Assembly: GCA_963791045.1 (NCBI GenBank)
Contig: CAWBQK010000017.1
Location: 160,001 to 224,000 of the forward strand
Direction of reading: 5' to 3'
DNA length: 64,000 bases
Source: Candidatus Latescibacterota bacterium
Lineage (GTDB): Bacteria > Krumholzibacteriota > Krumholzibacteriia > WVZY01
This document shows, one piece after another, positions 5,169 to 39,070 of this stretch. The notes beneath the pieces were generated by a model. It saw only the letters and a program-made list of their open reading frames with translations, was not told the origin of the DNA and made no database searches. How positions within the stretch are numbered: position 1 is the stretch's first letter; each line of letters opens with the position of its first letter. Both the position numbers and the translations under genes were made by a program.

Positions 5169-5720
5169 ATGAAGAAAATGGCATTGCTTACGATCGCGAT
5201 GCTTTGTGTAGCGAGCCTTGTGTTCGCGCAGGGTGGAAGTATCGGCGCCTTTGGCGACATGGGTGGAACAGACTGTTACATCACTGACGCAGCGCCCGGT
5301 CTTCTCTCGATCTACATTGTCCATGTGAACGTTCCCGGCGCAACGGCTTGTCAGTTCGCCGCCCCGACACCGGCGTGTATGACTGCTGCGACCTATCTGT
5401 CCGACAGTTCACCGTTCGCGGTCGTTATCGGTAGCTCGCAGACCGGCGTAGCCATTGGTTACGGCGGATGTTTCACAGGTCCGATCCACGTTTTGACGAT
5501 TCAGTACTTCGCCTCCGGAATGACAGCACCGTGCTGTTACTTCGATGTCGTTCCTGATCCGTATCTCCCGTCAGGACAGATCGAAGTCGTTGACTGTGTC
5601 GAGAATCTGATTTACGCCACAGGTCAGAGTGGCCTCGTGAATGCCGACGGCTCATGCGAGTGCGGCGTTCCCACGCAGGACACCACCTGGGGCCAGATGA
5701 AAGCTCTCTATAGCGAATAA
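5169..5720 (+). CDS. Secreted Cys-rich hypothetical protein with C-terminal TWGxxK motif (paralog A1)
   Basis: Signal peptide MKK...VFA|Q, strong SD, ends CECGVPTQDTTWGQMKALYSE; ungapped paralog of 6044-6595. Confidence 0.9.
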   Translation: MKKMALLTIAMLCVASLVFAQGGSIGAFGDMGGTDCYITDAAPGLLSIYIVHVNVPGATACQFAAPTPACMTAATYLSDSSPFAVVIGSSQTGVAIGYGGCFTGPIHVLTIQYFASGMTAPCCYFDVVPDPYLPSGQIEVVDCVENLIYATGQSGLVNADGSCECGVPTQDTTWGQMKALYSE

Positions 5721-5751
5721 TCTCTCTGTTGGCTGAGTGAAAATTTGCGCT

Positions 5752-5785
5752 AAAGGCGCCCGGTCTTGTGACCGGGCGCCTTTTT
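5752..5785 (+). terminator. Intrinsic terminator
   Basis: AAAGGCGCCCGGTC-ttgt-GACCGGGCGCCTTTTT. Confidence 0.85.
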
Positions 5786-5889
5786 ATTGAGGAGGGATGT
5801 AGGCAACTGCTTTCTTCGCAGAAGACTACCATCATAATGGCAAGGTCCGGAATTGCCAGCAATCATGCGGGATATCTCGAACTCGACAA

Positions 5890-5919
5890 TTGACAGGTGG
5901 TTAAATCTTATGTTATAAT
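5890..5919 (+). promoter_or_regulatory. sigma70 promoter with consensus hexamers and extended -10 for the 6044 gene
   Basis: TTGACA-N18-TATAAT, TGtTATAAT. Confidence 0.85.
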
Positions 5920-5923
5920 GAAG

Positions 5924-6043
5924 TTCGCAACACTGGAGCTTGGCTTCAATCCGTATACATCGCACGGGATGAATGATCGCTTCTCCAGATTGCCAACTGC
6001 AGATCCTGAACAGCGTACGATGTTAATAAGGAGGAGTAACAAT
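5924..6043 (+). promoter_or_regulatory. Conserved structured 5' leader, copy 2
   Basis: CTGGAG(5933)/CTCCAG(5983) enclosing TTCAATCCGT/ACGGGATGAA; SD AAGGAGG. Confidence 0.6.
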
Positions 6044-6595
6044 ATGAAGAAAGCAGCATTGCTGACAATCGCGATGCTCTGTGTGGCTAGCCTTGCGTTC
6101 GCGCAGGGCGGCAGCATTGGTGTCTTCGGCGACATGGGCGGCACGGACTGTAACGTGTATGACGCGGGCCCTGGTCTTCTGTCGGTTTATGTCGTTCATG
6201 TGAACACAGCGGGCGCAACTGCCAGTCAGTTCTACGCGCCGACACCGGCGTGTATGGTCGGAGCAACCTACCTGTCCGATTCGTCACCGTTCGCGGTCGT
6301 TATCGGTAGCTCGCAGACCGGTGTCGCGATCGGTTACGGCGGATGCTTTACCGCGCCGATCCACCTTCTGACGATTCAGTACTTCGGTTCCGGGCTTACG
6401 AGTCCGTGCTGTTACTTTGGCGTCTATCCGGATCCGGCAGTACCGTCCGGACAGATCGAAGTTGTCGACTGCGTGGAGAATCTGATCTTCGCGACCGGCG
6501 GCGTTGGTATCGTGAATCCCGACGGAACATGCCTGTGCGACGTCCCCACTCAGGACACCACATGGGGCAAGGTTAAGACGCTCTTCAGCGAATAA
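6044..6595 (+). CDS. Secreted Cys-rich hypothetical protein with C-terminal TWGxxK motif (paralog A2)
   Basis: 183 aa with 36 substitutions versus A1 (~80% identity, counted by eye); ends CLCDVPTQDTTWGKVKTLFSE. Confidence 0.9.
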   Translation: MKKAALLTIAMLCVASLAFAQGGSIGVFGDMGGTDCNVYDAGPGLLSVYVVHVNTAGATASQFYAPTPACMVGATYLSDSSPFAVVIGSSQTGVAIGYGGCFTAPIHLLTIQYFGSGLTSPCCYFGVYPDPAVPSGQIEVVDCVENLIFATGGVGIVNPDGTCLCDVPTQDTTWGKVKTLFSE

Positions 6596-6626
6596 TTATT
6601 CGTTGACCGAGTTATTCAGTTGGAAG

Positions 6627-6661
6627 AAAAACACCCGATCTTTGGATCGGGTGTTTTTTTT
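6627..6661 (+). terminator. Intrinsic terminator
   Basis: AAAAACACCCGATC-tttg-GATCGGGTGTTTTTTTT. Confidence 0.85.
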
Positions 6662-6819
6662 GCTGTCGAAGAATCAAAAAACCAATTTGCGTTCCGGGAC
6701 AAATAGCTATAGGTTGATATCGATCGGTAACGGGATGCCGCCTGACCGGGATTCGGAAAGAGATCGATCCGGCCGACGCGTCATCCTGGGGAATTGTGAA
6801 CGCACAAGGAGATCGCGGA

Positions 6820-7014
6820 ATGACAATGAATAATATGATCCGTGCGATAGCCGGGACGTTGATCCTGGTTTCGCTCGGGCTTGCGAAATTCCACAGCCCG
6901 AATTGGCTTTACTTTACCGCCTTTATCGGCCTGAACCTCTTCCAATCCGCTTTTACGAAGTGGTGTCTCATGGAGGACATATTGGCCAAGTTTGGTGTTC
7001 CGAAGCAAAATTGA
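6820..7014 (+). CDS. DUF2892/YgaP-like small membrane protein
   Basis: IR.IAG..IL.S...W...TAFIG.NLFQSAFTKWCLME.IL.K.G pattern; SD AAGGAG. Confidence 0.85.
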   Translation: MTMNNMIRAIAGTLILVSLGLAKFHSPNWLYFTAFIGLNLFQSAFTKWCLMEDILAKFGVPKQN

Positions 7015-7041
7015 CAACGGCAAACAGTGGGCGGAAAATTG

Positions 7042-7076
7042 AACCCGGGGACGCTGCGCGTCCGCCGGGTTTTTTG
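7042..7076 (+). terminator. Terminator between convergent genes
   Basis: AACCCGG-GGACGC...GCGTCC-GCCGGGTTTTTTT hairpin with U-tract. Confidence 0.55.
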
Positions 7077-7097
7077 TGTCGTGGGCGAGCGAGTTCG

Positions 7098-7733
7098 TTA
7101 TTCGGTTGACGCGAAGTAGGGATTTCTTCCGCCCGCGTGATCCGTGGTGTCGAGGATCTCGCCGACTTCGGGGATGTGCTGGCGAATCAACTTCTCGACG
7201 CCGTACTTAAGAGTGACGTGCGACATCCCGCATCCCTGACAACCGCCGCCAAATTCGAGGTAGATGTTGTTTTCTTTCACATCGAGAAGATTGATCTGAC
7301 CACCGTGTGAGGCGACTGCCGGTGTGATCGCGGCGTCGATGAGTTCCTGGACCTTTTGCTTAAGTTCATCGGACGAGGGAAGTGTATTTTTGTGCTCGGG
7401 GGCGACGGCGGGTTCATCGGAATCGAGTTGATGACGAATCGCCGATGCAATCTTTCCGCCAAGGTCCTGCCAGTCGGCGGGCTGCTCGGTACTCACCGTT
7501 ACGGCATCGCCCGCTACAAGAACCTCGGTCACCTCTTCGATGTCGATTAGTTTTGCCGCCATCGGCGATAACCTGGCGGCGGGTTCTCCGGACACATGGA
7601 TGGCGCCGCCGGGGTAGACCGCGGGTTCAACCACGAACCGACAGATATTTTGATGTGTATAAGAGGGTTCAACGCTTACGCGGATTCGTGAACCGTCCTT
7701 GGCTTTCCAACTGTAACTGGTTTCCTCGTACAT
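7098..7733 (-). CDS. NifU/NfuA-family Fe-S cluster carrier (Nfu N-terminal + NifU C-terminal domains)
   Basis: PAVASHGG...FGGGCQGCGMS..TLK.GVE...D.TDH..G.NPYF; SD AAGGAG before ATG 7733. Confidence 0.9.
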   Translation of the reverse strand: MYEETSYSWKAKDGSRIRVSVEPSYTHQNICRFVVEPAVYPGGAIHVSGEPAARLSPMAAKLIDIEEVTEVLVAGDAVTVSTEQPADWQDLGGKIASAIRHQLDSDEPAVAPEHKNTLPSSDELKQKVQELIDAAITPAVASHGGQINLLDVKENNIYLEFGGGCQGCGMSHVTLKYGVEKLIRQHIPEVGEILDTTDHAGGRNPYFASTE

Positions 7734-7828
7734 TGATTTGCTCCTTGATCGCGTATGGTTCTCGCGTGGATGGCGCCCAGGTGCCTCATTCCTCAAAATA
7801 GGGAATGGGAGACCGGTTATCAAGCAGT

Positions 7829-10800
7829 TCAAGCTGCTTTCGATCGTGACGGCAGGGCGCGAATATGTCGAATTACGCGCAGGAGGATGATGGACAGAAT
7901 CCAGGCGGCGACAATGGGAATACCGGCGGACTTGATCCAGTGGATGCCGACGAGGCCCTCGATGAATTCAATATCGAGAAGGTTCAAAAGAGACAGGCCT
8001 GACGCGGTAAGAACGACGCCGGTAATGAGGGATAGAAGGCTACGCCACCACGATCGCCACGCGCCGTACGCGCCGGCCCACAACGCGAAGAGAATCCCGA
8101 TCGCAAGCCCGGTGTACTGGGCGATTGCACGATGATTGTCGGCGAGGGTTACTGTTTCTCCCGGATCGACGACACCGTAGACAATGTGTGTCTGGTAGAG
8201 CCCAAAAACGATGGACGCCGCGATGAGAAGACAGACGAACACGCCGGTGGACATTACAACACGGCCCCAGTGCGTGGCTTCCTGCCAGGCGTCGCGCCAG
8301 CGCCATCCAAAAAAGCGCACCGATACAAAGTAGAAAGCGGGGATGGCAAATATGATTAAAATGGTGCTCGAAGCCAGGCCGCCGATCGATGCGAGCGCGA
8401 GGTTTTCCCAAATGTCCTTGTCATCGGTGTCTCTGAAGTGCACGAGCAGCGGGGCAAGCCCGACAATCGTGGTGCCGCTGGTAAGAAGGATCGAGCGGAG
8501 TCGTATTCGAACGGCGCGGGACACGGCGCGGCGAAGAAGGTCAACCCGCTCTTCCCGTGGCAGGTGCCACAGATCGACACCGCCGGGCTCGGTCCGCGTC
8601 TGGGAAAACAGCGCCGACGTTTTCGCTGGGTCGATGCCGAGGCGCGCCCTGATGACCAATGCGGACTCTGTCCGGAAACGGCTTGCGAGCAAAATCGCAT
8701 TGTTGACTACGATGCCAAAGAGAAGAATCAACCCAATTCGGGCGGAAGAATCAAAAGACGAGTTTGTGACCCAGAACGCGATGTAAACGCCAACAAGAGC
8801 CATCGGCACCGAGACCAGCACGAGAAACGGCAGGGAAATGCTTTCAAAAAGAGCGGCGAGAACCATAAAGATAAACAGCACGGCGAGCGCCAGCGCCAGC
8901 GTGAGTTCTTCCTCTTCTTCCTGCGAAAAGAATTCGCGAGTGGTCTCCTCCGCATCGTAGCCGTAGGGAAGGTCGAATGAGTCGAGGACTTTTTTGATAA
9001 AGCTCAGTCGCATCCGGTCGGTGCCTACATACTGCCAATTGAGGTACGTGGTGTACCGCTGGTTTTCTCTAATTATTGAACCGGAAAGCGGAAGAACCTC
9101 GGCTTTAACAAGGTCGGCAAGCCGCACGGTCTCTCCACTTGGAGTTGTTATGAATGTCTCTCGCGCATCGGCGAACTCCACGGCTTCGGAGTCCTCGAAG
9201 GCCAGTTGGACCTGTTTGTGTTCGTTGTCTATGAGCATCGTCCGCGGTGTGTCGACACCGAGCAGGCGTTGGAGGTGGACGACGATTTCCAGGACGCTGA
9301 GTCCGTAAACGGCTAATTGGTCCCGGTCCACGGTTACGACGACTTCGTCCTGGAACGCGCGTTCGAACTGGGAGCCGGTCGTGATCCGGGCGTTACGCAC
9401 CCGGCGGTTCTTCTGAATGTCGGTGAGAGTCTTTTCCGCGATCTCCCGGAGCCGTTTTGAATTGTATCCTGTTATCTTGATCATCGAATTAAGGGCGGAG
9501 CCCCCGAAGTTGCCGCGAACATAGGGAGTGTCGGAATAACCGAAGATTACGATGGCCGTGCCGCCAAGCTTGTCCGCCTCGTCGACAAGAAGCTGTCTGA
9601 AAAACATCGGAATCTCCGACTGGCGAGTGTCTTTGTCAAACTCGATCCTCATCATCGCCTGGTTGCCGAAGACTTGTGAGCGCACCTGCGCGCCCTCGGG
9701 GATTGGTTGGAGCTTTTCCTCGAAGAGGCGAAGGGTTTCGGAAGTAAGCTCGATATCCGTTCCCGAAGGCATCTCGAGGATCAATACAAGCTGTTCTACA
9801 TCGGGCAGCCGCCAGAACCCCGCCTTTATGACCTTGGTGTCATAAACGTACCAACCGAAAACAAAGACAAGCAGAGTGGCTGGAACCACGAGCCACCAGA
9901 GTTTCTGGTTCCAGGCAAATATACGTTCAAAAAGAGGCGGGCGGGCATCGAGATCGGGAAGATCCTCGGTAAACCTGGCGAGCTCCCTTGGGTCGTCGAC
10001 GTTGTTCGGGCCATCCTCCGAGCGCCTCACGTTGGGCGTGGCCCAACTGCTGTGGAGGATCATCGGAACCCATCCGAACGCGACGAAGAGCGATGCGATA
10101 AGCGCCGTGGCGACGGAGACTCCGAGAGGAACGTAGTAAAGCGCAAGGCGGCCTGACAGAAATATAAAAGACACGAATGCCACAACTGTTGTCGCCGTGG
10201 TTGTGAGGATGGGGAAGAATACATCGCGCGTGCCGCCGATAATCATTTCGAGTGCGATCTTCATTTTTGACGAATGCGACAAACCGGCTTCCTGTGCCTT
10301 GTCCAGGGACCCCATGCGGCGGTGAATCGAATCGAGAACGAGGATACTGTTGTCAAGAATGAGCCCGAAGCAAACAGTCAGACCGCTGATGGTGATAAAG
10401 TTGACTGATATTTTGAGAAAGTAGAAAAAGCTCAGTGAGATAACGATGGCAAAAACGATCGATCCAATGACGATTGCGGTGAGCTTGATCTGTCGGAGCG
10501 AAATCGCCAACAGCAGAAAAAGAAGAGCGAGAATGACGAGCGATCTGTATACGAGTTCCTTGAGCTTTGATTCGAGTTCTTCGCCCTGATCCTCGTCAAC
10601 ATTGAATGTGACCTCGAAAGGTACCTGGTTTTCTATTGCGGGCAGGGCCTTGCGGAGCGTTCGACTCGCGGCGACAGAGTTTGCACCGCTCCTCTTTTCG
10701 ACGAAGATTTGGACGACGTTCTTGCCGTTTGAACGGACAAGGTACACGGGGTCTTCGTGATCCCTTTTGATTTCGGCGAGCATTCCAAGTGTGAAGGCTC

Positions 10801-11548
10801 TTTCGCCTCGTTGAGCGACGATGGCGTGTCGAAGGTCATGAAAGCTGACCATATCCCGGAGTGCCACGAACTTCTCGGTTCCGGCCTGGAATACCGTCCC
10901 CGCCCCATCCAATTCGTCGAGACGGTCTATATTAGTGAATATCTCGTCCGGCGTGATGCCGTAGAGGTCGAGTTTGCGGCGGTCGAGATAAATCTTGATA
11001 AGCGGCTGGGCGCCGCCAAGTATTCGCGCGTCGGCGACACCTTCGAGCGCCACCAGCTGAGGGAGCACCCAGTCTTCGGCGAGTTCGCGCAATTCGTTGG
11101 GTTCGAGGGGCGACTCGAGACTGAAGGTAAAGAATTGTTCGGTTCTGAATTCCTCGGGGACGTAGGGGAGGATCATCGGTTGTCCGGCGTTGAGCGGCAA
11201 ATTACGTCTGACAGAACCCAACTGTTCGTTGAGGTCGATTCGGGCGAATTCGATATCAATCTCGCGGCGAAAAGATACTTCGACTTGTGAGCGAGCGGCC
11301 CGGCTGGTCGACCTGATGTTCTCGACGCCATGGACTTTGCGAGCCGCCTCTTCAATGGGAATGGTAATCGAGCGTTGGATAGCTTGAGGTGAGGCGCCGT
11401 TCCAATATGTTTGTATAGTTAGAGTTGGGAGATCTATCTCAGGTATAGCTTCAATTTGGAGGCGGGGTACGGCGTACAGACCGAGCAGTATGAACGCCGC
11501 AAAAATCATCCAGGTCGTGACCGGGTGCCTCACGAAGAAATTGGTCAT
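7829..11548 (-). CDS. RND efflux transporter permease subunit (AcrB/AcrD/AcrF family) with extra C-terminal TM region
   Basis: RHPV N-terminus, P.IDLP, GASP..I...IT.PIEE, TM4 LILDNSILVLD, GIVVNNAILL, RLRSILLTS.TTI.GL.PL. Confidence 0.9.
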   Translation of the reverse strand: MTNFFVRHPVTTWMIFAAFILLGLYAVPRLQIEAIPEIDLPTLTIQTYWNGASPQAIQRSITIPIEEAARKVHGVENIRSTSRAARSQVEVSFRREIDIEFARIDLNEQLGSVRRNLPLNAGQPMILPYVPEEFRTEQFFTFSLESPLEPNELRELAEDWVLPQLVALEGVADARILGGAQPLIKIYLDRRKLDLYGITPDEIFTNIDRLDELDGAGTVFQAGTEKFVALRDMVSFHDLRHAIVAQRGERAFTLGMLAEIKRDHEDPVYLVRSNGKNVVQIFVEKRSGANSVAASRTLRKALPAIENQVPFEVTFNVDEDQGEELESKLKELVYRSLVILALLFLLLAISLRQIKLTAIVIGSIVFAIVISLSFFYFLKISVNFITISGLTVCFGLILDNSILVLDSIHRRMGSLDKAQEAGLSHSSKMKIALEMIIGGTRDVFFPILTTTATTVVAFVSFIFLSGRLALYYVPLGVSVATALIASLFVAFGWVPMILHSSWATPNVRRSEDGPNNVDDPRELARFTEDLPDLDARPPLFERIFAWNQKLWWLVVPATLLVFVFGWYVYDTKVIKAGFWRLPDVEQLVLILEMPSGTDIELTSETLRLFEEKLQPIPEGAQVRSQVFGNQAMMRIEFDKDTRQSEIPMFFRQLLVDEADKLGGTAIVIFGYSDTPYVRGNFGGSALNSMIKITGYNSKRLREIAEKTLTDIQKNRRVRNARITTGSQFERAFQDEVVVTVDRDQLAVYGLSVLEIVVHLQRLLGVDTPRTMLIDNEHKQVQLAFEDSEAVEFADARETFITTPSGETVRLADLVKAEVLPLSGSIIRENQRYTTYLNWQYVGTDRMRLSFIKKVLDSFDLPYGYDAEETTREFFSQEEEEELTLALALAVLFIFMVLAALFESISLPFLVLVSVPMALVGVYIAFWVTNSSFDSSARIGLILLFGIVVNNAILLASRFRTESALVIRARLGIDPAKTSALFSQTRTEPGGVDLWHLPREERVDLLRRAVSRAVRIRLRSILLTSGTTIVGLAPLLVHFRDTDDKDIWENLALASIGGLASSTILIIFAIPAFYFVSVRFFGWRWRDAWQEATHWGRVVMSTGVFVCLLIAASIVFGLYQTHIVYGVVDPGETVTLADNHRAIAQYTGLAIGILFALWAGAYGAWRSWWRSLLSLITGVVLTASGLSLLNLLDIEFIEGLVGIHWIKSAGIPIVAAWILSIILLRVIRHIRALPSRSKAA

Positions 11549-14500
11549 TCGCCGGTCTCCTTGATGCGATGGGCCATCTTGTAGAGGATCGGCGTGTAGA
11601 TAAGCGTGAGGAACGTCGTCAGGAAAAGACCGCCAATGATGGTCAGAGCGAGCGGCCGCTGGAGTTGTTCACCGCTACCTATTCCGACGGCAAGCGGGAT
11701 CATGGCAAGAATCGTCGACGCACTGGTCATTAAAATTGGCCGGAGACGGAGTCGGCTGGCCTCGAGGATTGCCTTGTAGCCGTCCATACCGTTCTCACGC
11801 AGGCGGCGTATGGTGTCCACCTTGATGATGGCATCGTTGACCGCAATTCCAATTAAGGCAACCATGCCGATGAGGGAGAGAACATTCAACGAACCGCCGC
11901 TGAGAGCAATGGCAATAACGGACCCCGCGAGACCGATTGGTAGCACGGAGGCAATCAGGAGTGGGTCGACAAACGACTCGAACTGGGCGGCAAGAATCAT
12001 GTATACGAGGAGCGTCGCAAGCAGCATTGCCCAGCCGAGATCGCGTGAAGCTCTTGACCATCTCGGCTCGCTGACCGCTCTTAACAATCATCACGCCGGT
12101 TGGCAGGTCCATTGTCGATGCGACCGCCATCGCCTGCTCCCACGCTTCATCGACCGATCCCTTGCGCAGGTCGGCGGACACAGTGACCATTCGACGCTGA
12201 TTTCTCCGGGTCAGTTCGCGCACGGGCCGTTCTTCGTGCAGGTCGAGAAAGGTGCGAAGGGGGACCGTATTTCCGTCGCCGACCGCAACGGGTGAATTCA
12301 ACGCCTCCGAGAGATCGCGGCGCTTGTCACGGGGAAGCCTCACCGAGATATCGATCCTCTGGTCGACCTCGTTGAATGTGGTCGCCTCCACGCCGCGGAT
12401 GCGGTTGCGAAGCTCGCGCGCAATGGCCTCGGGATTCAGGCCGCTACGGAGGATTTCTTCGGCGTCGAGTTGGACGACGAGGTTTGGCGTGCCGATAACC
12501 CGGTCTACCTTGAGATCTCGAAGTGATTCGGCGTCAGTGAGACGATGCATCAAATCTTCGGCAACTTCCACGGCGACCAGGGGATCCTCGGCCATCACAC
12601 CGAGTGTGAAAGGCGCCTCGTCCGTGGCGAGAATTTCACCGAGTCCGATTCCTTCCTCGTGGAAAGCGTATTGGAGCCCCGGCATATTGCCGAGCCGCCT
12701 GGCCGCTTCCTCCTGGATTCTGCGTCCTTTCTCGCGTCCGCCTCGTCCGGGCTTCAGAATTATTCTGATACTCGCCGTGTGCGGCGCCGTGAACTCGCTC
12801 AAAGATTCGAGTGTTTTCTCGGTGCGGCCAACCTGGCTGAACACGTTTCTAACATCCTCATCGGCGCTTATCCAGTCAGCGAACTTCGAAGTCCAGATGG
12901 CCGTTTCCTCGAGTGGCGTGCCGCTCGGAAGTTCGACGTCGATCCTCAGGTCACCGGCGCTTCTTTCGGGCATAAAACTCGTTCGAAGTCCGGTTGCGAG
13001 AAGAGCTGTTAGGGCGAGTCCGGCGACGAGAATTGTGAGCATAAACCTGGGGCGTCGAAGCGAGCGGACGAGCACGGTGTGGTAGACATTATAAAACGCG
13101 TCGAATGCGTCGCTGAAGAGCCGAAAGAGTCCGCGGGGAGGCCCTTGTTTTCTTGAGAGTACCCTCGCTGAAAGCATCGGCTGAAGCAGCAACGCCGTCG
13201 CTACCGATACGAGAAGCGCAAAGACGACGGCCAGGGCCTGGTCGCGGAAAAACGCGCCCGCTATTCCCGGGACATAGACGACGGGGAAGAAGACCGCCAC
13301 GGTTGTGAATGTGGCTGCAAGGACGGCGCGGGCCACCTCTCCGGTCCCGTCCACCGCGGCGCGGGCGACGAAACGCTGCCGGGCAAGATCCTTATGCGCG
13401 CCATCCGCATCACCGGTCCCCGGTTCTATGGGGCGGTCTTCAGCGAGATGCCGGTTGATATTTTCGAGCACAACGATCGCATTATCGACGAGCATACCGG
13501 CGGCAAGAGATAGCCCACCGAGGCTCATTAAGTTGAGTTTGACCTTGCCGAAATAGAGGAGGGCAAAAGTAATGAAAATCGATACCGGGATTGAGACGCC
13601 AACGACGATGGGGCTCCGGAAATCACGAAGGAAGAAAAACAAAACGAGAAAAGCGAGACATGCCCCGATGATGAGCGATTGCACGAGCCCTTGAAACGAT
13701 GCGCGGACGTACTCCGCGTCCCTGTATACGAACTCGTATTCGAAGTCTCCGTAGTCCTCGACGAGAACGCCGAGCGCGACATCGATTTCCTCCGACACCT
13801 GGATCGTATTGGCGTCGGGTTCCTTATAGAGAAGAAACGACACCACCTGGTCACCGCCGAGGTAGGTCATTCCTTCCGACTCTTTGACGGTGTCGGTGAC
13901 AACCGCGATGTCGCTGATGCGGACAACGGACGTCCCCGATCTCAAGATGTCCGTTGCGGCGATGTCTTCGAGCGTTTCATACTCTCCGACGATACGTAGA
14001 CTCAGGTGCAGCGGTCCTTGCCTGATTTTCCCCCCGGGGAAGGATATGTTGCTCCGCGAGAGAGCGCCGCGGATGTCTTCGATCGTAATGCCATACATCG
14101 CCATTTTCTTGACATCGGGTTCGACGCGGATTTCGCGTTCTACGCCGCCGACTACCTCGGCCTGGCTTATCCCCTCGACTTGTTGGAGCGCGGGTTTGAC
14201 GACCTCGGTCGCGAATTCCGTCACCGATTCTATACGTCCGGTTCCCTTGAGGGCGAGAATGCTAATGGGTCGCGAGAGGGGGTCCCAACGAAGAATAACC
14301 GGTCGTTCCGCCTCTTCCGGAAAATCGTCGCGAAACGCTACGCGGTCCACGGCCTCTCGGAGGTGTAGATTGGCGAAGTCCATCTGCGTGCCCCACTCAT
14401 ACTCGACGGTGATTATCGAGATACCTTCGCGGGTTCTGGAGATGACACGGCGGACACCGGAGAGCGCGGTGACGACTTCTTCGATTCTCTGCGTGACGAG

Positions 14501-14680
14501 GCGTTCGAGGTCCTCCGCCGGAATATCCTCGTACGTCGTGATTACGGTAAGTCGCGGGTATGTAATCGACGGAAGCAGGTCAACGGGCAGTCGGGCGAAA
14601 CTAAGTAAACCGATCAGCACTAGCGCGAGAAATAGCATGCTGATTGCTATGGGTCGCTGGATGACAAAACGCAGCATCAC
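11545..14680 (-). CDS. RND efflux transporter permease subunit, frameshifted at ~12046 (likely sequence error; ~1044 aa when corrected)
   Basis: LPVDLLP.I.YP and GMLVDNAIVVLENI in the 961-aa ORF. The C-terminal TMs (LAAQFESF..P, GIAVNDAI, RLRPILMT) lie in the 11545-12087 frame. The corrected stop overlaps the next ATG (ATGA). Confidence 0.85.
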
Positions 14681-14686
14681 GCGTCC

Positions 14687-16033: not shown

Positions 16034-16039
16034 GAGTTT

Positions 16040-16072
16040 AAAAAAGTCCGGCCGGCTAAGCGCCGGCCGGAA
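16040..16072 (-). terminator. Intrinsic terminator after the beta-propeller gene, immediately before the MFP start
   Basis: Minus strand TCCGGCCGGC-gctta-GCCGGCCGGA-CTTTTTT. Confidence 0.7.
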
Positions 16073-22412: not shown

Positions 22413-22416
22413 GTGC

Positions 22417-28196: not shown

Positions 28197-28625
28197 ATGA
28201 AGAATCCCAAGTTCTTCACGATTGAAGAAGCCGAAAATCTCATCGGTTTGCTTGAAACTACTCTCGAGCGGATCAAGCGGAACAAGCAACAGTTTCTCTG
28301 GCTTCAGGAAGAAATCTCCATACTTGAGTTGGTTGTGGACTGCGGCGCGCACGAAGACAACGCCGACTCGGTCTCGCTCGTATCCAAACAAAAGACATTC
28401 AACAAACTCTCTCGAGAAATCGAGAGGGATGTCGTCGCGATCGACGCGATGGGCTGCGTGCTGCGAGACGTAGACACAGGCGTTATCGATTTCTTCTCGA
28501 TCCAGGATGGAACGGTCGTGTTTCTTTGCTGGAAGAAGGGTGAAGACAATATCATGTACTGGCACCCGATCCGTGAAGGATTTTCAGGGCGCCAGGAACT
28601 GATGCGTTCACCGAGCAAGCGCTGA
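28197..28625 (+). CDS. DUF2203 family protein
   Basis: FT.EEA..L...G..LRD.D.G.IDF......VFLCWK.GE..I.YWH...EGF.GR; SD GAGGAGG. Confidence 0.88.
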   Translation: MKNPKFFTIEEAENLIGLLETTLERIKRNKQQFLWLQEEISILELVVDCGAHEDNADSVSLVSKQKTFNKLSREIERDVVAIDAMGCVLRDVDTGVIDFFSIQDGTVVFLCWKKGEDNIMYWHPIREGFSGRQELMRSPSKR

Positions 28626-30350: not shown

Positions 30351-30597
30351 GGGCCCTCCAAGAGCGGTGTGGACGTAGACGATGTCAGATAGGACAGTCT
30401 AACACGAGCGCCAACGACCTGTAAAATCGTTTTCATATCGGAACCTCGATCGAGGTCCCCGCGAATCGGCCGCCGGAAAGAAGAGATGGTGACGAATTGA
30501 TTTCCACTTGACTTGATATGGAGTTGCGGTAAGTTTGCTGTAGGATATTCGAGGGTTTTTCAGGGCTGGACGATGAAAGCAGGCAAGGAACACATCC

Positions 30598-31130
30598 ATG
30601 GCTAAACGCTGATACGACAATCGTGAAATACAACCGGAAAAGCTGGTGGGAGCGGGTCTATCTTTTTGAGATCTTCCGTGGGATGGGAATCACCATTTCG
30701 CATTTCTTCCACAATATGGCGGAACTCCGCAAAGGCAAAGTCGGGATGACGTATCAATACCCTGAACAGCCAAAACCGATCGATCGGTGTGGAAGGGCGA
30801 ACACAGGCTGATGCACCGTGAAGACGGCACGCCGCGTTGCGTGGCTTGTAACTGCTGCTCCACGCTTGTCCGGCCGACTGTATCCACATTACGGCGGCCG
30901 ACTCAGGTCATGACGGCGTGGAGAAATACCCCATCGGGTTCGACATCGATATTCTGCAGTGTGTGTTTTGCGGGATGTGCGTAGAGGCGTGCCCGTGTGA
31001 TGCGATTCGGATGGACACGGGGAAGTTCCCCGAGTCCGGTTACGATGGTCCCATTCGAATTTTCAACATTGACTATTTGATGAACAATCATCCCGAGGCC
31101 GTTAGCAAGGTCAGCGAAGCGATCTACTAG
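30598..31130 (+). pseudogene. nuoI: NADH-quinone oxidoreductase subunit I, broken by three single-base indels (error or pseudogene)
   Basis: Pieces in successive frames: ERVYLFEIFRGMGIT..HF...T.QYPE / .GEHRL......RCVACNCCST / CPADCI.I...EKYP..FDID...CVFCGMCVEACPCDAIRM. Confidence 0.85.
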
Positions 31131-31151
31131 ACAGCCCCGGATCCTCTCCGT

Positions 31152-32566
31152 TCACGACTCCGGAAAAATTTTGCCGGGATTGAGGATGCCTTTCGGATCG
31201 AAGGCATCCTTTAAACGTTGCATCAAGGCTATCTCGTGGGGTTTGAAAGCAATCCGAGATACGGCTTTTGCGAGTAGCCGATTCCGTGTTCGCCGGATAT
31301 CGTCCCGCCCAGCGACACGGTGAGTTCAAAAATCTCCCTGATGGCTGGTTCGAGATTGCGGCTCCAATCCTCGTCGCTCATATCCATTTTCAAGATATTG
31401 ACATGAAGGTTCCCGTCTCCGGCATGCCCGTAACAGACGGTTGTGATGCCGTGCCGTTTCGCGATTTTTTTTACCCCGAGAAGAAGGGGGACAAGATTGT
31501 AGCGGGGAACGACCGTGTCTTCTTCCTTGTAAACCGATACGGATTTGACCGCCTCGCCGGTCGCCCGCCGCATATCCCATATTTCGTTCTGCCGGGTTGA
31601 CGAATCGGCAAGGAGCACATCGGATGCGCCTTGTTCGAGGGCGATTTCGCAGACCTTTTCGGCGGATGCGTGCAAAACCGTTTCGTCGTTGCCGTCAAGT
31701 TCGACGATCAGCTGTGCGGCGGCGTCACTGTTGGGTATCGATGAATCGAGGTGCTTCTCAGCAATCTTTATCGCGTCGCGTTCCATGAGTTCGAGGGCCG
31801 AGGGGGTGATGCCGGCGTTCATTATTGCGGGAACTGTGCGGGCGGCGGACTCGAGAGTTGGAAAGGGAACGAGAAGTGTGAGCCGGTGTTTGGGCAGTGG
31901 AATCAGTTTGAGGTAGATTTTGGTAATGACGGCAAGGGTCCCCTCGGATCCCACTATCAGCTGCGTGAGATTGTAACCCGTCGAATTCTTCAGAAGTTTC
32001 CCGCCGTGATTGATGATTTCACCGTTGGGAAGAACCGCTTCGATTCCAAGAATGTAATCTTTTGTGACCCCGTATTTGACGGCGTGCGGGCCGCCGGCGC
32101 ACTCGGCAAGATTGCCGCCGAGACGGCAGCTGCCCTTACTGGCCGGGTCGGGAGGGTAGTAGAGACCCTTGTCTTCGACGGCTTCCTGCAGCTCCTGTGT
32201 GATGACGCCGGGTTCGACAACCGCCATGAGGTTGTTGGTGTCGATTTCGATGATCTTGTCGAGGCGTTCGAGCCCAAGGACGATTCCGCCAAAAAGAGGC
32301 AGTGCTCCTCCGGACAATCCCGTGCCGCCGCCGCGGGGCGTGACGGGAATATCATTATCCCAGGCGATCCGCATTGTTTTGGAAACGGAATCGGTCGTGG
32401 TGGGAAGCACCACAACCTCGGGTGGGAAAACAAAGTCCTCGGTTTCGTCGGAACCGTAGATTTCGATCGATTCATCGTCGACGAGCACGTTCTCTTTGCC
32501 CGCCGCTTGGCGGAGCAAAGCGAGAATGTCGGGTGTGACTTTTCCAAATTCGAGTTGCTTGGTCAT
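31152..32566 (-). CDS. FAD-linked oxidase, GlcD/D-lactate dehydrogenase family; frameshift near 31254
   Basis: PRGGGTGLSGG, YPPDPAS, GGN.AE.AGG..AVKYGVT, GSEGTL, GHAGDGNLH, SGEHGIG. The canonical tail K.AFDPKGILNPGKIF is in the adjacent frame, ending at 31152. Confidence 0.88.
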
Positions 32567-32621
32567 CGGGTCTCCGTGTAATGGTATCTGGTCGTGCCGA
32601 ATACTTCATTGCAGGCAAACG

Positions 32622-33584
32622 CTAATCAGACTTGTCAAAACTCCCCGTGTCATGGACGTCCAAAACGAGGACTCCTCTGGAATCGTTTGCGACATACAAG
32701 TAACCGTCGTGCGCGGTCACCTTGTTCGCGAATCCGCCGTCGGTGTCAAAACGGTGTAAGAATTCGAGGTGATCCGGAGCGACAAAGCGAAATATAATAA
32801 CGCCGGCCTGGCCGTCGGCCACGTAGACCAATGTTCCGTCGGTGGCGACGCCGTGCGCGAGATCGTTTGTACGGGCATTCGCCACGAGCGCGGGCGTTGA
32901 TGGGTCCGATATGTCGACAACGCTCAATCCATGAACGCCGTCCGCGACAAAAGCCACGTTCTTGTTGAAAGCAACATCGCGCGCATCGCCCTTCGTAGGC
33001 AATGATCCGCGGCTGGTCGGCACGCCGTCATCGTCCACTTCGAGAATTATGAGACCGCTTTTTCCGGCGCACACGTAGAGTTCATGAAGGTAAAACCTTA
33101 CACCCCTGCAGTAATCGTCCCACTCTCCACGCCCGGTCAGCCTGGGCGCGTCGGGGGCATTCAAATCAAAAATTGAAACGCCGATGCTGCCGTCCGCGAC
33201 GGCGAGAATGTTTTGTCTGACATCGAGCATCATGGCGGAGCCGGCAGTTTGAATGTGTAATGTGATTTCCGGCGAAACGGGCTCCGTGGCGTCGATGATG
33301 TAAACACCCGCGGGCCCCTGCGCGACGAACACTCGATTGTCATCGGCAAGCACATACGTCGCCGACTGCGGCAGCGGCACGATGGCGATCTCCGTTGGAG
33401 AGGTAGGGTCCGACAAATCGAGAACTCTCAACCCCGCGGAAACACCGGCGAAACCCCGGTCGCCCGAGACGGCGACATGATATGTACGCGCGGAGAGCGG
33501 TTCGACCAGCGATTCGGTTTGTGCGGAGGTCGTGGCAACGATCGCGAGACAAACAATGGAGACGGTAAAGATGAGAGTTTTCAT
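32622..33584 (-). CDS. Secreted LVIVD-repeat beta-propeller protein
   Basis: Repeats GLRVLDLSDP..P, GVYIID, VADG..GL.VVDISDP..P; signal peptide from ATG 33584. Confidence 0.85.
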   Translation of the reverse strand: MKTLIFTVSIVCLAIVATTSAQTESLVEPLSARTYHVAVSGDRGFAGVSAGLRVLDLSDPTSPTEIAIVPLPQSATYVLADDNRVFVAQGPAGVYIIDATEPVSPEITLHIQTAGSAMMLDVRQNILAVADGSIGVSIFDLNAPDAPRLTGRGEWDDYCRGVRFYLHELYVCAGKSGLIILEVDDDGVPTSRGSLPTKGDARDVAFNKNVAFVADGVHGLSVVDISDPSTPALVANARTNDLAHGVATDGTLVYVADGQAGVIIFRFVAPDHLEFLHRFDTDGGFANKVTAHDGYLYVANDSRGVLVLDVHDTGSFDKSD

Positions 33585-33660
33585 AGGCGTCAATCTACCA
33601 AACATCGCTTTGATTGACCACGAAAACTTGGTAGAATCCGGTCGCACAAGGAGGTAGAAC

Positions 33661-34974
33661 GTGCGGCGTTCAATCGCGTTTTTTATATTATCAATACTGT
33701 TGCTGAATTCGAATGGTCTCTCCGGAGCAGAGTCCGGTTTTGACGATGACTTTCGTGACGGCACACTTCGGGTCGATCTCGTGCACTCGGGCACATCCGT
33801 GGACGAAGAGTTCGCGATTCGGCGCGTTGTGAAGCAGATGGAGTGGGCGGGCCCGCGGACGAATCTCGCCACAAGCCGGGATATGGGCAAATACAGGGTG
33901 GATCTTATTGACAGTGGCACGCGAAAACGGATTTATCGCCTGGGCTTCAGTTCTTTGTTTGGCGAATGGCAGACGACTGAGGAGGCGGCGGAAACCCGGC
34001 GTGCGTTCGAGGAAACGCTCGAATTCCCGTGCCCCAGAAACCCCGTAGATCTGGAGATTTCAAGCCGAAACAAAAGCGGTGAAATGGAACGTGTTTTTGC
34101 AACCTCGATAGATCCGAACTCGCATCTTGTAGGCCGTCCGGTGACAAATCCGGGTGTCAAGGTTCACGATATCCATGTGAGTGGTGATCCGCACGAAAAG
34201 CTGGATATTCTTATTCTCGGGGATGGGTATACGATTTCCGAGCGGGAAAAATTCAGGAAAGACTGCACGCACATTGCGGACAGATTTCTGGATGCCGAGC
34301 CTTTTGATTCATTGAGAGACCTGATTAGTTTCCGTGGCCTGATGATACCTTCGGCGGAATCCGGTATCGATGAACCCCGAAAGGGAATATTCAGGGACAC
34401 TCCTTTTGGTATGTCGTTCAATACTTTTGATTCACCCAGGTACTGCATGACCGAGTCGGTATGGGCGCTTCACGATGCCGCGTCCTTGGCGCCGCATGAT
34501 GCTATCCTCGTGATGGGGAACAGTTCCCGTTACGGCGGAGGCGCGATATTTAATTTCTACACGGCTTTCATCAGCGATAACGAATTTGACGACTACCTGT
34601 GCGTGCACGAGTTCGGTCACGGGTTCGCGGGGCTTGGCGACGAGTACTATTCGTCAAAAGTCTCGTACAACGAGTTTTACCCCAGAGGCGTCGAACCGTG
34701 GGAACCGAACATAACCGCATTGCTCGACCCCGAGCGCCTGAAATGGGCCGAGTTAGTCGAAGACGGAACACCGATACCAACTCCGGCCGATGACCCCCGG
34801 TTCGGCGAGAAAGTTGGCGCATTCGAAGGCGCCGGTTATGCGGCCAAGGGACTGTTCCGGCCCGCCGTGGACTGCAAAATGTTTTCTAAAGGACATCAGG
34901 AGTTCTGCGCGGTTTGCAAAAAGGCCATGATCGAAATGATCCACCGCTACGCTCAAGACACACCGAAGAAGTAA
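33661..34974 (+). CDS. M64 family (IgA peptidase-like) metallopeptidase
   Basis: TLRVD..H.G, LGDGYT, YGGG.IFN, HEFGHGFAGLGDEYY, EPWEPN, FEGAGY, C.M....FC.VC. Confidence 0.9.
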   Translation: MRRSIAFFILSILLLNSNGLSGAESGFDDDFRDGTLRVDLVHSGTSVDEEFAIRRVVKQMEWAGPRTNLATSRDMGKYRVDLIDSGTRKRIYRLGFSSLFGEWQTTEEAAETRRAFEETLEFPCPRNPVDLEISSRNKSGEMERVFATSIDPNSHLVGRPVTNPGVKVHDIHVSGDPHEKLDILILGDGYTISEREKFRKDCTHIADRFLDAEPFDSLRDLISFRGLMIPSAESGIDEPRKGIFRDTPFGMSFNTFDSPRYCMTESVWALHDAASLAPHDAILVMGNSSRYGGGAIFNFYTAFISDNEFDDYLCVHEFGHGFAGLGDEYYSSKVSYNEFYPRGVEPWEPNITALLDPERLKWAELVEDGTPIPTPADDPRFGEKVGAFEGAGYAAKGLFRPAVDCKMFSKGHQEFCAVCKKAMIEMIHRYAQDTPKK

Positions 34975-34976
34975 AA

Positions 34977-35492
34977 GTGGGAACACCCCAGAAAATAGTC
35001 GTCGATGGTTACAACGTGATTTATGCGGATGATTCTCTTCGGCGGCACGCACTGAGAGACATGCAACGCGCGAGACGCGAGTTTCTCGATCGTATCAAGA
35101 CGTATTTGATGGGGAAGCAGATCCAGGTGACGGTTGTCTTCGACGGACGCGGCGGAATGGTGGACTCCGAAACGATTGTGCCGGGAAAACTGCAGGTGAT
35201 TTACTCGGCGCGTGACGAGACGGCCGACGACCTGATAATCTCCATGGTTTCCAGGTCGGGTAACCCGCAGGCGTATCTTGTGGCTACTTCCGACAAGGCC
35301 CACATCCGCCCCGCCGTGTCGAGGTTGGGGTGCGAGGTTATTGGCGCGATGGGGTTCTTGAAGCGGATTTCCCAGGGTGGACCCGCAAAGGGTGAGAAAA
35401 GAGTCAGGGAAAAGCCGGAGGCAGACGGCGCCGATACAGACTACTGGCTCTCGGAATTTGGAAAGGAAGAGGGGGATGACAAGAACAAATAG
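34977..35492 (+). CDS. NYN/YacP-like PIN-fold RNase domain protein
   Basis: VVDGYNVI, VVFDG, VIYS...ETADD.I, VATSD. Confidence 0.88.
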   Translation: MGTPQKIVVDGYNVIYADDSLRRHALRDMQRARREFLDRIKTYLMGKQIQVTVVFDGRGGMVDSETIVPGKLQVIYSARDETADDLIISMVSRSGNPQAYLVATSDKAHIRPAVSRLGCEVIGAMGFLKRISQGGPAKGEKRVREKPEADGADTDYWLSEFGKEEGDDKNK

Positions 35493-35587
35493 AGGGGGCG
35501 GCGAGAATTCTCTTAGAAATTTGGGGTGTTCCTATTAGAATGAATATGTTCGCAACTTTGAAAACAACAGCAATTTGATTTAAGTAA

Positions 35588-36547
<960 letters not shown>

Positions 36548-36648
36548 GCGAGGTATGTAATGTTCAATCGAAGCGCACGGGAGCTTTCGCTCGCGTGCGT
36601 TTTGATTGTAAATGTGGATGCGGGGATTCTAAAAAAGGGGGCACGAGA

Positions 36649-37412
36649 GTGCGAAGGATGTTTGTATTCGTCGTTGTTCTGATATCGTTCTCGGTTGGGT
36701 TGGCCGCGGCGCAATCTCAGGGGGTGGACTTGGATCAGCTCAAGAGGATCGCGGAGCGATTCAATTTTCTGTTTATCCATGTCGGGGCGGAAGGCGGGCC
36801 CACGCGGATAATTTATGCAGATGCGCGTGAACACGTTCACGTATATCGTCTCGAAGGCAACAGGGCGACGCTTGATTGGGAGGCGACAGGGTTGGGATCG
36901 AGGGCATCCGCGTTGATTGTCAAAGACGTTGACGCCGACGGCCGGGAAGAGATCATCATCGCCACCTCGGGGGGCGGATTGTCTTTTACGACGCGGAGAC
37001 ATACGACCTGAAATGGGAGAACCTCGACGCTCCATTCGAGAAAATCGAGTGCATGGTGGCCGCGAATATCGATCGCGACCCCCAGGATGAGCTGATTTTC
37101 ATTGCTGATTCGTACCTTCATATCTACGACGGACTGAGCAGATCGACCGAATGGCAGAGCCAAAGGGAGTTCAGCGCCAGGGAGATTGTGCTTGGAAACG
37201 TCGATGACGACGATCAACTCGAGATCATCCTCAACACCGGAATTATATTTGACACAAGGTTTTACAACGTGGAGTTCGAGGCGGAAATCAGCTTCGGAGA
37301 GAAGATCAGCCTGATGGACGTCAATGGAGATCAGATTCCAGAGGTGATCGGGGAGACAGCGGATTTCACGATAAGAATTTTCGATATTTACGCCGAACGG
37401 GAATTCTGGTGA
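36649..37412 (+). CDS. Secreted FG-GAP/VCBS-like repeat protein, frameshift in G-run 36969-36974
   Basis: Four DxDxD-type Ca-binding loops (DVDADGREE, NIDRDPQDE, NVDDDDQLE, DVNGDQIPE) split over two frames; signal peptide. Confidence 0.7.
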
Positions 37413-37482
37413 AACTCGCCGCCGGAGCTTCATTTGCGTAATGAGGATAAGCGATACGGCTGCTGCTAATGCTAATTTACTC

Positions 37483-37511
37483 TTGAACTTGCGAATCGGT
37501 TGTGGTACAAT
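37483..37511 (+). promoter_or_regulatory. sigma70 promoter with extended -10 for the 37676/38405 pair
   Basis: TTGAAC-N17-TACAAT, TGgTACAAT. Confidence 0.65.
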
Positions 37512-37675
37512 GGCCAAGCCAACGAGTGTAGCACAAGAAAATAATTACATCGGCGCTTTAGATCCTGCATACCAGGGAGCTCTCGGCGTTATGGCGTTAT
37601 ATCGACCGCCCTGTGGATCAAAGAACATTTGATTTGAGCGAACTATCATACACCTGGAAGAGGAGGAGTTCTTCG

Positions 37676-38362
37676 ATGCTCAGTTTGTTAAAAAAGGTGG
37701 TGCCCATCCTCTTGATTTTGATCCTGGCTTCTCCGCCGGCGGCGGATGCCGTGATCAAAAACGAGTCATTTCAGCTTTCTGGTTTTGGCGGGTACTTGAT
37801 CACGCCGGCCGTGTTTGACGGCTCGATCTTCGCCGGAACCCTGTCGCCGGGCACATTCGTTATCGACATCGATGACGTGGTCTGGCCGGTTGACAATCTT
37901 GCCTCGCCGCAGAACGAACGCTGGGATTACATCTTTGCGAATTACTTTGTTTACGACAGCACGCCGGGCGCGCAGTCGTGGACCGCACATTTTCCTCCTC
38001 TACCCCAGCAGCTTCCCGTGGTGACGTGGAGCTTCTATCACAACGGGGATAAGGTCGGCGGGATACTTCAGAGTTTGATTATCACGATAAGCGATAAGGA
38101 CGCCGACGGGGTCGTCGATCCCGATGAGATGAATCTTCAGGCGGTCGGCGGGAACCTTGTAAGCCACATCGAGCAGAGCACGGGTATTTATGAAGGCTTC
38201 TGCGGTGGCGGTTCTCTCAACGGTTCGATTGAAGGTTTTGACCTCTCGCAACCATACGTGATGACGATCAGCGGGGGGACCCTGCTGCTAAGGGACTTCA
38301 GCTGCCAGGTGCCTACACAGAACACAACCTGGGGCGCTGTCAAAGAGATTTACTCAGAATAA
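37676..38362 (+). CDS. Secreted hypothetical protein with C-terminal TWGxxK motif (family B1)
   Basis: SD AGGAGG, signal peptide, DKDADGVVDPDE loop, ends DFSCQVPTQNTTWGAVKEIYSE. Confidence 0.85.
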   Translation: MLSLLKKVVPILLILILASPPAADAVIKNESFQLSGFGGYLITPAVFDGSIFAGTLSPGTFVIDIDDVVWPVDNLASPQNERWDYIFANYFVYDSTPGAQSWTAHFPPLPQQLPVVTWSFYHNGDKVGGILQSLIITISDKDADGVVDPDEMNLQAVGGNLVSHIEQSTGIYEGFCGGGSLNGSIEGFDLSQPYVMTISGGTLLLRDFSCQVPTQNTTWGAVKEIYSE

Positions 38363-38404
38363 GTACAGCTATGTCGCGGTGAGCACGAGCAGGAAGGGTT
38401 ACTG

Positions 38405-39070
38405 ATGAAATTTACAGCTTTGATGGTTTTGAGCGCGATTCTGGTTCTAAGTGTGCCGGCACTTGCGCAGGTTCCGAGCCATATTCAGTATGAGTTTTCG
38501 GGGACAGGAAACCTGATGGTTTCGCCCGTCCTTTATTCGGGTTCGATCGACACAGGGGAAGCCCTGCTCGTCGGAGGAACCTGGGATATCGCGATCGACG
38601 ATACCGGTTGGCCGGCGGATACGGATAAGGCCGCGCGCTGGGCGTATCTCGATGCAACGTATTTTACACCGAACTTCAATTCGAACGTTTATTCGTGGAC
38701 GGGAATTTTCAGTTCGGCGACAACGGCGAGCGTGCCGACATGGCGTGCCGGTCGTGGTGACGTCGGTGATCTTGTTGGAACTGCGGAAGTCCAGTTGACG
38801 ATCCAGGACTTTGACTTTGACGCGATGATCGATCCCGATGAGAGAATGACGATGCTGCTTTCCGGAACGATTATCGTTATTCGGAACGGCACCGGAATCT
38901 GGGCTGGTTACTGTGGCCTGGGCTCTTACAGCGGGTACACGGAAAATATGGATCCGTGGAATTTCGCGGATGACAATGTCTATGGCTCGTCGGTCCTCGA
39001 CATCGAGGACTGCTCGTTGCCGACAAAGGAAGTTACCTGGGGACACATCAAAACCAGGTACACCGACTAG
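38405..39070 (+). CDS. Secreted hypothetical protein with C-terminal TWGxxK motif (family B2)
   Basis: Signal peptide ...PALA|Q, distant paralog of B1, ends EDCSLPTKEVTWGHIKTRYTD. Confidence 0.85.
   Translation: MKFTALMVLSAILVLSVPALAQVPSHIQYEFSGTGNLMVSPVLYSGSIDTGEALLVGGTWDIAIDDTGWPADTDKAARWAYLDATYFTPNFNSNVYSWTGIFSSATTASVPTWRAGRGDVGDLVGTAEVQLTIQDFDFDAMIDPDERMTMLLSGTIIVIRNGTGIWAGYCGLGSYSGYTENMDPWNFADDNVYGSSVLDIEDCSLPTKEVTWGHIKTRYTD

Follow-up and report, generated by a model that had tools for sequence, protein, structure and literature searches.

A widespread 17-residue C-terminal tag on exported proteins of Krumholzibacteriota and other little-known phyla

A 64,000-nucleotide stretch of a Candidatus Latescibacterota genome (GCA_963791045.1, contig CAWBQK010000017.1, positions 160,001 to 224,000; GTDB phylum Krumholzibacteriota), hereafter the window, encodes two pairs of secreted proteins that end in the same short peptide, here called the TWG tail or tag. 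Our analysis revealed that this tail is a real, widespread and unmodelled C-terminal tag on exported proteins. It is very probably an envelope sorting or anchoring tag of some kind, and we lean towards the more specific reading that it serves as a short, linear signal for envelope sorting, recognised by an outer-membrane system that resembles type IX secretion (T9SS) machinery, with its SprA, PorU and PorV-family barrels, and that it is used for small cysteine-rich surface proteins.

In the genome (3.66 Mb, 81% complete), the pattern [TS]WGx[ILVMF]K has 53 matches among 68,886 six-frame open reading frames (ORFs), and 48 of the 53 sit 4-7 residues before a stop. Among the 3,305 called genes, 47 end in this pattern plus 4-7 residues, against 0.02 expected from composition, indicating that the TWG tail is not a product of chance; just one motif copy in the called genes lies more than 15 residues from a stop. 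A hidden Markov model (HMM) seeded solely with the four window tails converged with 52 of its 59 matches C-terminal, and the carrier set used below consists of 51 ORFs above 9 bits, one 48-residue ORF having been removed. Many genes of the assembly are split by frameshifts (e.g., SprA and several genes with the tail or with a T9SS-type C-terminal domain, CTD), and ORF counts therefore include fragments; about 1.5% of this genome's genes bear the tag. Its consensus spans 17 residues, [VT]-[PA]-[VT]-x3-[TS]-W-G-x-[IVL]-K-x-L-[YF]-x1-4-stop. Counting from W as position 0, the 51 carriers have V at -7 in 37, P at -6 in 38, V or T at -5 in 45, T or S at -1 in 50, W in 50 and G in 51, followed by I or V at +3 in 47, K at +4 in 51, L at +6 in 35 and Y or F at +7 in 51, after which come 1-4 residues. 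The first-pass annotation had framed this core with a leading Cys and a terminal [ST]-[ED]; the core stands, the terminal pair is not conserved, and the Cys, found at -11, -10 and -9 in only 12, 13 and 14 of 51, belongs to the bodies and lies outside the tag.

The 51 carriers fall into 26 unrelated BLAST body groups, 21 of them single-member, with bodies that include BACON, CHRD, beta-helix, CARDB, lamin-tail, cohesin-like and CxxCH-containing types. By a crude hydrophobicity rule, a signal peptide was assigned to 37 of the 51 carriers versus 528 of 2,791 genes overall; the 14 carriers missed by the rule comprise six whose own frame has a signal-like start by eye, six frameshift fragments whose start of this kind lies in the upstream frame, and two others. 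The carriers are short (median 202 aa versus 734 aa for CTD proteins), and their Cys content is 2.7% versus 1.0%. No transmembrane segment is present (best 15-residue hydropathy over the last 30 residues, mean 0.63, maximum 1.73), and at most one Arg as a rule, with no basic cluster, follows the Tyr. The earlier proposal that the tail is a portable module on many unrelated signal-peptide bodies is thus borne out. Tail codons are identical at a rate of 0.43 versus 0.37 expected, so that synonymous sites are near random although the invariant residues are kept, which suggested selection on the peptide. Recent DNA-level shuffling of tails found no support.

The four window ORFs, all on the forward strand, were recovered with exactly the coordinates and tails first annotated, and each has a hydrophobic signal-type N-terminus. 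Family A comprises a 183-aa protein (5169..5720) with a signal peptide, a Cys-rich cohesin-like beta-sandwich and the tail as its last 17 residues (5667..5717), and a paralogue, also of 183 aa (6044..6595; tail at 6542..6592), whose body is 80% identical by BLAST. Family B comprises a 228-aa protein without Pfam or NCBIfam match (37676..38362; tail at 38309..38359) and a 221-aa paralogue (38405..39070; tail at 39017..39067) with a body about 35% identical by BLAST; in homologues of this paralogue the tail is present in 62 of 64. The bodies of the two pairs are unrelated, as had been claimed, with no BLAST similarity and an hhalign result of 0.1% (E 0.45) from shallow alignments of 10 and 2 rows. 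The family A model (pLDDT, the predicted local distance difference test, 65; built from 8 rows) resembles cohesin, with a best Z of 9.9, a root-mean-square deviation of 2.8 and 117 aligned residues (2vo8), and its top 18 structure matches are cohesins or cohesin complexes by title; the family A body has no Pfam match, the cohesin model included. Whereas the body folds cohesin-like, the tail in this model has a pLDDT of about 25. An ESM Atlas search with family B gave no match.

Homologous bodies exchange the tail for a T9SS-type CTD, an interchange that the first-pass annotation had put forward as a check. CTDs of the FlgD/T9SS type occur on 114 ORFs or ORF fragments of the genome. Here family A bodies terminate in such a CTD at C4:3-1043 and C1:23372-24586, a lipoprotein with a family A body has neither signal (C13:117234-117815), and the beta-helix body ends in a CTD at C13:272027-275671 and C12:19094-23125. 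Among relatives, 45 distinct family A ORFs in 30 loci, with classes corrected by eye, were divided into 33 with the tail, two with a degenerate tail, two with a CTD and eight cut off or with another end. In addition, the tail follows choice-of-anchor domains E (115.6 bits, cut-off 23.8), W (195.2, cut-off 45) and X (44.2, cut-off 25), where it fills the anchor-signal slot; in the portion cited here, bioRxiv 10.1101/2023.03.06.531300 applies 'choice-of-anchor' (domain A) to surface proteins with LPXTG, PEP-CTERM or T9SS signals. In this lineage the motif extends beyond one homologous family and is not a feature of cytoplasmic proteins or, as a rule, of internal positions, and structure prediction, which covered family A, gave no sign that families A and B share one fold with the tail built in; rare non-terminal copies do exist, and the strict C-terminal position holds apart from those. 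One protein, P0092, has a second copy near its N-terminus, shortly after the signal peptide, and the copy in C17:41724-42242 (L030) lies 29 residues ahead of the stop.

The tail falls outside every Pfam and NCBIfam model, both in the four window proteins and in this genome's carriers (51 compared with Pfam, 37 of these with NCBIfam), as well as in 67 of 77 extracted GTDB carriers, and PF18962, TIGR04183 and PF13860 have no match on the four window proteins or the 51 carriers. PF24248 was rejected as a tail model, being DUF7451, a 191-position body model that matches some carriers. A PDB sequence search with the tail profile returned a single chance match (E 0.51), and the ESM Atlas returned nameless clusters only (0.88-0.90), two of which have one Eisenbacteria-labelled member. 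A description of the motif was not found in the literature searched, which was open-access only.

The tail profile matches 118 of 121 genomes of this phylum, two of the three missed genomes having clear tails under a broader profile, and 50 of 51 genomes in the Eisenbacteria phylum; in the Zixibacteria phylum 4 of 41 genomes were matched, with one true tail in each. Related genomes are not independent, and these counts are ranges rather than statistics. Up to about 70 tail matches were found per genome, and the tail-rich G079 (one contig) holds 65 tails. A GTDB pattern scan gave at least 125 stretches with the tail, 80 of them titled, including Eisenbacteria (27), Krumholzibacteri- (4), Latescibacter- (3), Zixiibacteriota (1) and other labels (10), and 79 of 122 GTDB tails have [PA] at -6 with [VTA] at -5, positions outside the search pattern. 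Among 1.84 billion cluster representatives, the tail profile matched 1,036 at E<=0.001, and in all of the best 150 of these the motif lies at most 12 residues from the end. The labels Fibrobacteraceae, Polyangiaceae, Elusimicrobia and Verrucomicrobiia were rejected as range, as were G131 and G132 (one match each); G133 is a member of the Eisenbacteria phylum, L088, L097 and L110 are chance matches in ORFs of at most 16 residues, and the sole match of G005 (L315) did not show the motif on inspection.

The connection to T9SS comes from a fused form. In a Poribacteria-type lineage, the W-G-x-[VIL]-K core stands directly ahead of a CTD, and 97 of 100 distinct metagenome matches to WG..K-gap-PNPFNP continue into the CTD, with the form [AS]-V-x-P-x-G-K-x-x-x-T-W-G-x-V-K-x-T-x-L-x-Q-N-Y-PNPFNP; positions outside the search pattern are likewise conserved in the 100 fused copies (A/S/G at -11 in 84, V/I at -10 in 90, K at -5 in 84, T at -1 in 78). 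One top homologue is named Candidatus Poribacteria. Nine stand-alone tails occur in the same metagenome loci as the fused form, and some Poribacteria-type stand-alone tails stop 0-2 residues past K. A comparison of the tail profile with the fused profile gave 89% (E 2.3e-6) and extends into the first L-Y of the CTD, its WG..K part being circular. In an AlphaFold2 model of the fused form (93 rows), pLDDT exceeds 90 across the CTD and is about 50 for the motif, which forms a 4-residue helix; unpacked in both models, the motif acts like a free linear stretch that some other component presumably binds. Since the core is fused ahead of a CTD in this other lineage, we connect the tag with the T9SS-type signal itself rather than with the parallel, separate route beside T9SS that the first-pass annotation raised as possible. 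In four of these proteins (P0276, P0278, P0284 and P0293), an N-terminal sigma-70/ECF (extracytoplasmic function) domain is followed by a transmembrane segment (close to residue 211), then by an extensive repeat domain and finally by the TWG core with the T9SS CTD; from this architecture, an inner-membrane sigma factor with an outer-membrane export signal, they are possibly trans-envelope sensors.

The junction ahead of the CTD points in the same direction. In the genome under study, [TV][GAS][IV] occurs 12-24 residues ahead of PNP in 34 of 88 CTDs, versus a background of 5.9%. According to the portion of PMC11969387 cited here, PorU cleaves the linker ahead of the CTD, where P. intermedia shows a preference for a small +1 residue and a conserved Ile at +2, and PMC4804311, likewise cited for a portion of its text, places the signal within the last 22 CTD residues and has PorU cut the CTD off. 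As the junction of the 34 CTDs matches this site and also opens the fused form, the motif would lie inside the removed signal. The stand-alone tail opens with [VT]-[PA]-[VT]-[EQK], in register with the CTD processing site; its +2 is V or T in 45 of 51, but its +1 is mostly Pro, against A/S/G at +1 in 84 of 100 fused copies.

Much of the machinery that could read such a signal is encoded in the genome: SprA, PorU and PorV were matched at 543/200, 554/420 and 217/90 bits, PorU adjoins PorV, a GWxTD protein lies near SprA, and 13 PorV-family matches were found. One is in the window, a PorV/PorQ-family barrel (62739..63773, forward strand; NF033709 106 bits, cut-off 90) with no adjoining cargo gene; this conserved core gene is a candidate receptor, one among about 13, and both core PorV barrels were matched in 59 of 59 genomes. 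GldM/PorM had no match in this genome or in four related ones, although the Bacteroidota control did; GldN had no match in the genome either, but its controls were silent too. A three-chain co-fold of the tail (96-row alignment) with the 62739 barrel and the PorU-adjacent PorV scored 0.00 (mark 0.32), with controls that stayed unfolded, and is evidence neither way.

In the mechanism that we propose, Sec export and disulfide formation would precede tag recognition, a component of the machine would bind the W-G-x-hydrophobic-K-x-L-Y core as a short helix, and small cargo (about 200 aa) would be exported or held at the surface via the 17-residue tag, which would replace the roughly 85-residue CTD serving large cargo (about 730 aa). 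Cleavage of the tag by PorU is the weakest step and appears doubtful, retention being more likely where Pro fills +1. Only tentatively can the proposal be extended to a motor-less T9SS-like machine that, in at least three uncultured phyla, exports and displays a whole class of small surface proteins through a dedicated receptor for a 17-residue unfolded peptide. If true, the tag would be the shortest outer-membrane export signal of this kind of machine and would open a second cargo route beside the folded CTD.

Several observations weigh against a T9SS-like reader. The tag has none of the motifs B, D and E found in CTDs, and the shortest CTDs described in the cited portion of PMC11969387 have 43-55 residues and three strands. 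A search for the fused form in 201 genomes from this phylum and 201 from the Eisenbacteria phylum, the two tail-rich phyla, found no in-frame case; it gave 4 + 4 matches, those with spacing read being out of frame or without a CTD behind, so the direct T9SS link comes from another lineage. Pro occupies the putative +1 position of 38 tails out of 51 in this genome and of 65 out of 122 in GTDB, which argues against cleavage in this genome, and [TV]P[VT] is not enriched ahead of CTDs (3 of 88 versus 1.7%). PorV barrels are just as common in the mostly tail-free genomes of the Zixibacteria phylum, so that co-occurrence does not discriminate. Neighbourhood clustering of 128 tail loci yielded only other tail or CTD genes, with no dedicated enzyme or transporter, and the adjacency of tail genes to CTD genes is modest (11 of 50 versus 5.3 at random; 99.9th percentile 12). 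Finally, a lipoprotein family carries the tail (C15:184398-185216, L074, P0092); the lipoprotein at C15:184398 has it, and a 60% identical paralogue (C2:101657) stops before it.

Four other explanations were considered. The most serious, although unlikely, is that the tag is a non-covalent docking peptide for a periplasmic or surface scaffold in the manner of dockerin and cohesin, uncleaved and without a role in crossing the outer membrane. The dispensability of a free C-terminus (the N-terminal copy of P0092, the C17:41724-42242 copy away from the stop and the internal copies ahead of CTDs), the Pro at the junction, the lipoprotein carriers and the cohesin-like fold of the commonest carrier would all fit docking; however, family A turned up in no more than 12 of the 61 phylum genomes searched, nearly all belonging to one order, versus 118 of 121 for the tail, and unless it has diverged beyond detection elsewhere it is not a general receptor. 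Docking alone would also leave the processing-site-like junction and the one-for-one exchange with the CTD unexplained. A second idea, which we regard as improbable, is that the tag is an amphipathic helix binding the lipid leaflet directly, like the C-terminal helix of MinD: W at 0, the hydrophobic residue at +3, L at +6 and Y at +7 do share one face (mean hydrophobic moment 1.0 over the 10-residue core on the Kyte-Doolittle scale, without a shuffle control), but the idea leaves the conserved upstream [PA]-[VT] (79 of 122) unexplained, the Poribacteria-type tails that stop 0-2 residues after K are too short, and lipid binding would not call for a W, G and K that stay unchanged from one unrelated body or phylum to the next.

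The two remaining explanations have very little probability. A substrate motif of an exosortase-type or other intramembrane sorting protease, akin to PEP-CTERM or IPTL-CTERM, was suggested by the V-P-T...W-G start, which we take to resemble IPTL-CTERM, and the exosortase model PF09721 was matched in 42 of 60 genomes tested. Yet the tail has neither transmembrane segment nor basic cluster, TIGR04174 has no match above its cut-off, and exosortase, present in 15 of 16 mostly tail-free Zixibacteria-phylum genomes, was not found in this genome (81% complete), in the tail-rich G079 or in G056, G070 and G162; the reading is largely refuted by this phylogenetic profile, which covered exosortase. The slightest chance is given to the view that the tail is no signal at all and is a structural element of one fold or the decaying stump of a longer CTD. 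Because the tail can be aligned to the opening stretch of the extended Poribacteria-type CTD, as far as the first L-Y of that CTD, truncation is a plausible origin, but a stump or structural element is at odds with the range of carrier bodies from cohesin-like, CHRD and lamin-tail to CARDB, BACON, beta-helix and CxxCH types, with the unpacked state of the tail in both models, and with invariant residues kept despite near-random synonymous sites.

Compared with known systems, the tag works like a C-terminal sorting signal, yet it belongs neither with the tripartite families nor with those of the T9SS CTD. With the T9SS type A CTD (PF18962, TIGR04183, FlgD_ig PF13860) it shares the C-terminal position, many copies per genome, occurrence on signal-peptide proteins, the lack of a transmembrane segment, exchange on the same bodies, a partly similar junction motif and the presence of SprA, PorU and PorV in the genome. 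It differs in being 17 residues long and unfolded in models, where the portion of PMC11969387 cited here gives the CTD as a beta domain of 43-82 residues that contains motifs B, D and E, and also in the Pro at +1 and the failure to find PorM/GldM. Small C-terminal sorting signals are characterised by eight attributes in section 5 of bioRxiv 10.1101/2023.06.07.544157. The tag shares attributes 1, 2, 6, 7 and 8 with the tripartite signals (LPXTG, PEP-CTERM, IPTL-CTERM TIGR04174, MYXO-CTERM and the orphan WGxxGxxG-CTERM NF038039). It resembles them in its position and number of copies, in having signature residues, in its occurrence with signal peptides on bodies of unrelated kinds, and in exchange; homologues that have another signal or none and the tag behind choice-of-anchor domains add to the likeness. 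Its three invariant residues W, G and K stand in mid-tag rather than at the start, the transmembrane helix and the terminal cluster of 2-5 basic residues are missing, none of the models of these families matched the tag, and exosortase does not track it. Like the dockerins of cellulosome-type systems, the tag is a short portable module on many bodies, the commonest of them cohesin-like; a dockerin, however, folds into a domain of about 65 residues that binds calcium, and the tag sits on the cohesin-like protein itself, a family far narrower than the tag. The membrane-targeting helices of MinD and FtsA, which are cytoplasmic and belong to single families, resemble it as short amphipathic C-terminal helices with a G-x-hydrophobic-K-x-L-aromatic pattern, and differ in that the tag has exported carriers, invariant residues and a conserved upstream junction.

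In the part of the bioRxiv 10.1101/2023.06.07.544157 survey cited here, a membrane helix is common to every small C-terminal sorting signal, and the signals of T9SS are folded domains; a short linear signal with neither membrane helix nor folded domain would be a third design. The tag-bearing lineages are abundant in sediment, soil and aquifers and their envelope biology is almost unknown. One small HMM would mark thousands of hypothetical proteins as envelope cargo. The tag also tests how little a T9SS-type machine needs for cargo recognition and, if working, would be a very compact surface-display tag.

Two further window proteins with a T9SS type A/FlgD-Ig CTD, one at 799..2346 on the reverse strand and an M1 peptidase at 46033..48042 on the forward strand, lack the TWG tail. 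The 62739 gene (window 61105-63773; L324-L353) stands behind a sigma-54 activator in most of the inspected relatives from the phylum, and in many a LysM murein transglycosylase gene converges on it. Elsewhere in the genome, large variant-CTD proteins lie directly upstream of their own PorV-family genes (C10:97606-101142, C6:406538-411655, C17:332497-337095, C10:36862-40998, C1:122942-124783 and C10:52883-54052), and from this gene order we regard them as putative cognate cargo-carrier pairs. A frameshifted PorV-family gene at C15:82865-91246 (L301) occurs among TonB, ExbB/ExbD-like and large outer-membrane genes. In 16 of 16 Zixibacteria-phylum genomes tested (G212-G247), the open frame containing the best match to the PorU-adjacent PorV is about 870-1,070 residues long, which suggests fusion to another domain.

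Some carriers are unusual in themselves. Small exported proteins at C9:7561-8181 (L011) and C17:41724-42242 combine the tail, in one of them extended by 25 residues, with a CxxCH haem-binding motif and may be surface-displayed cytochromes. Two-domain family A proteins (L395, L399) have degenerate tails of the form W-[GD]-R-[IV]-R, in which the otherwise invariant K and G can be lost. On a 1-kb contig, P0169 joins a prepilin N-methylation N-terminus to the C-terminal half of a tail-bearing family and is probably an assembly chimera.

Two exact-match RNA contigs from run X1 cover 5974-6147 and 6161-6474 in the region of the second family A gene; as contigs with 0.07 of words in common, they allow no expression ranking, and uncovered parts carry no meaning. 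Upstream, consensus matching alone placed sigma-70 promoter-like sites on the forward strand at 5013..5042 (11/12 consensus) ahead of 5169 and at 5890..5919 (12/12) ahead of 6044. The 135-nt leader of the first gene is 79% identical to that of the second (regions 5013-5168 and 5890-6043), and BLAST found no further copy in the genome. Strong Shine-Dalgarno sequences at both genes and hairpins with T runs behind both stops were also observed, and these features suggest that 5169 and 6044 are separate, highly expressed units.

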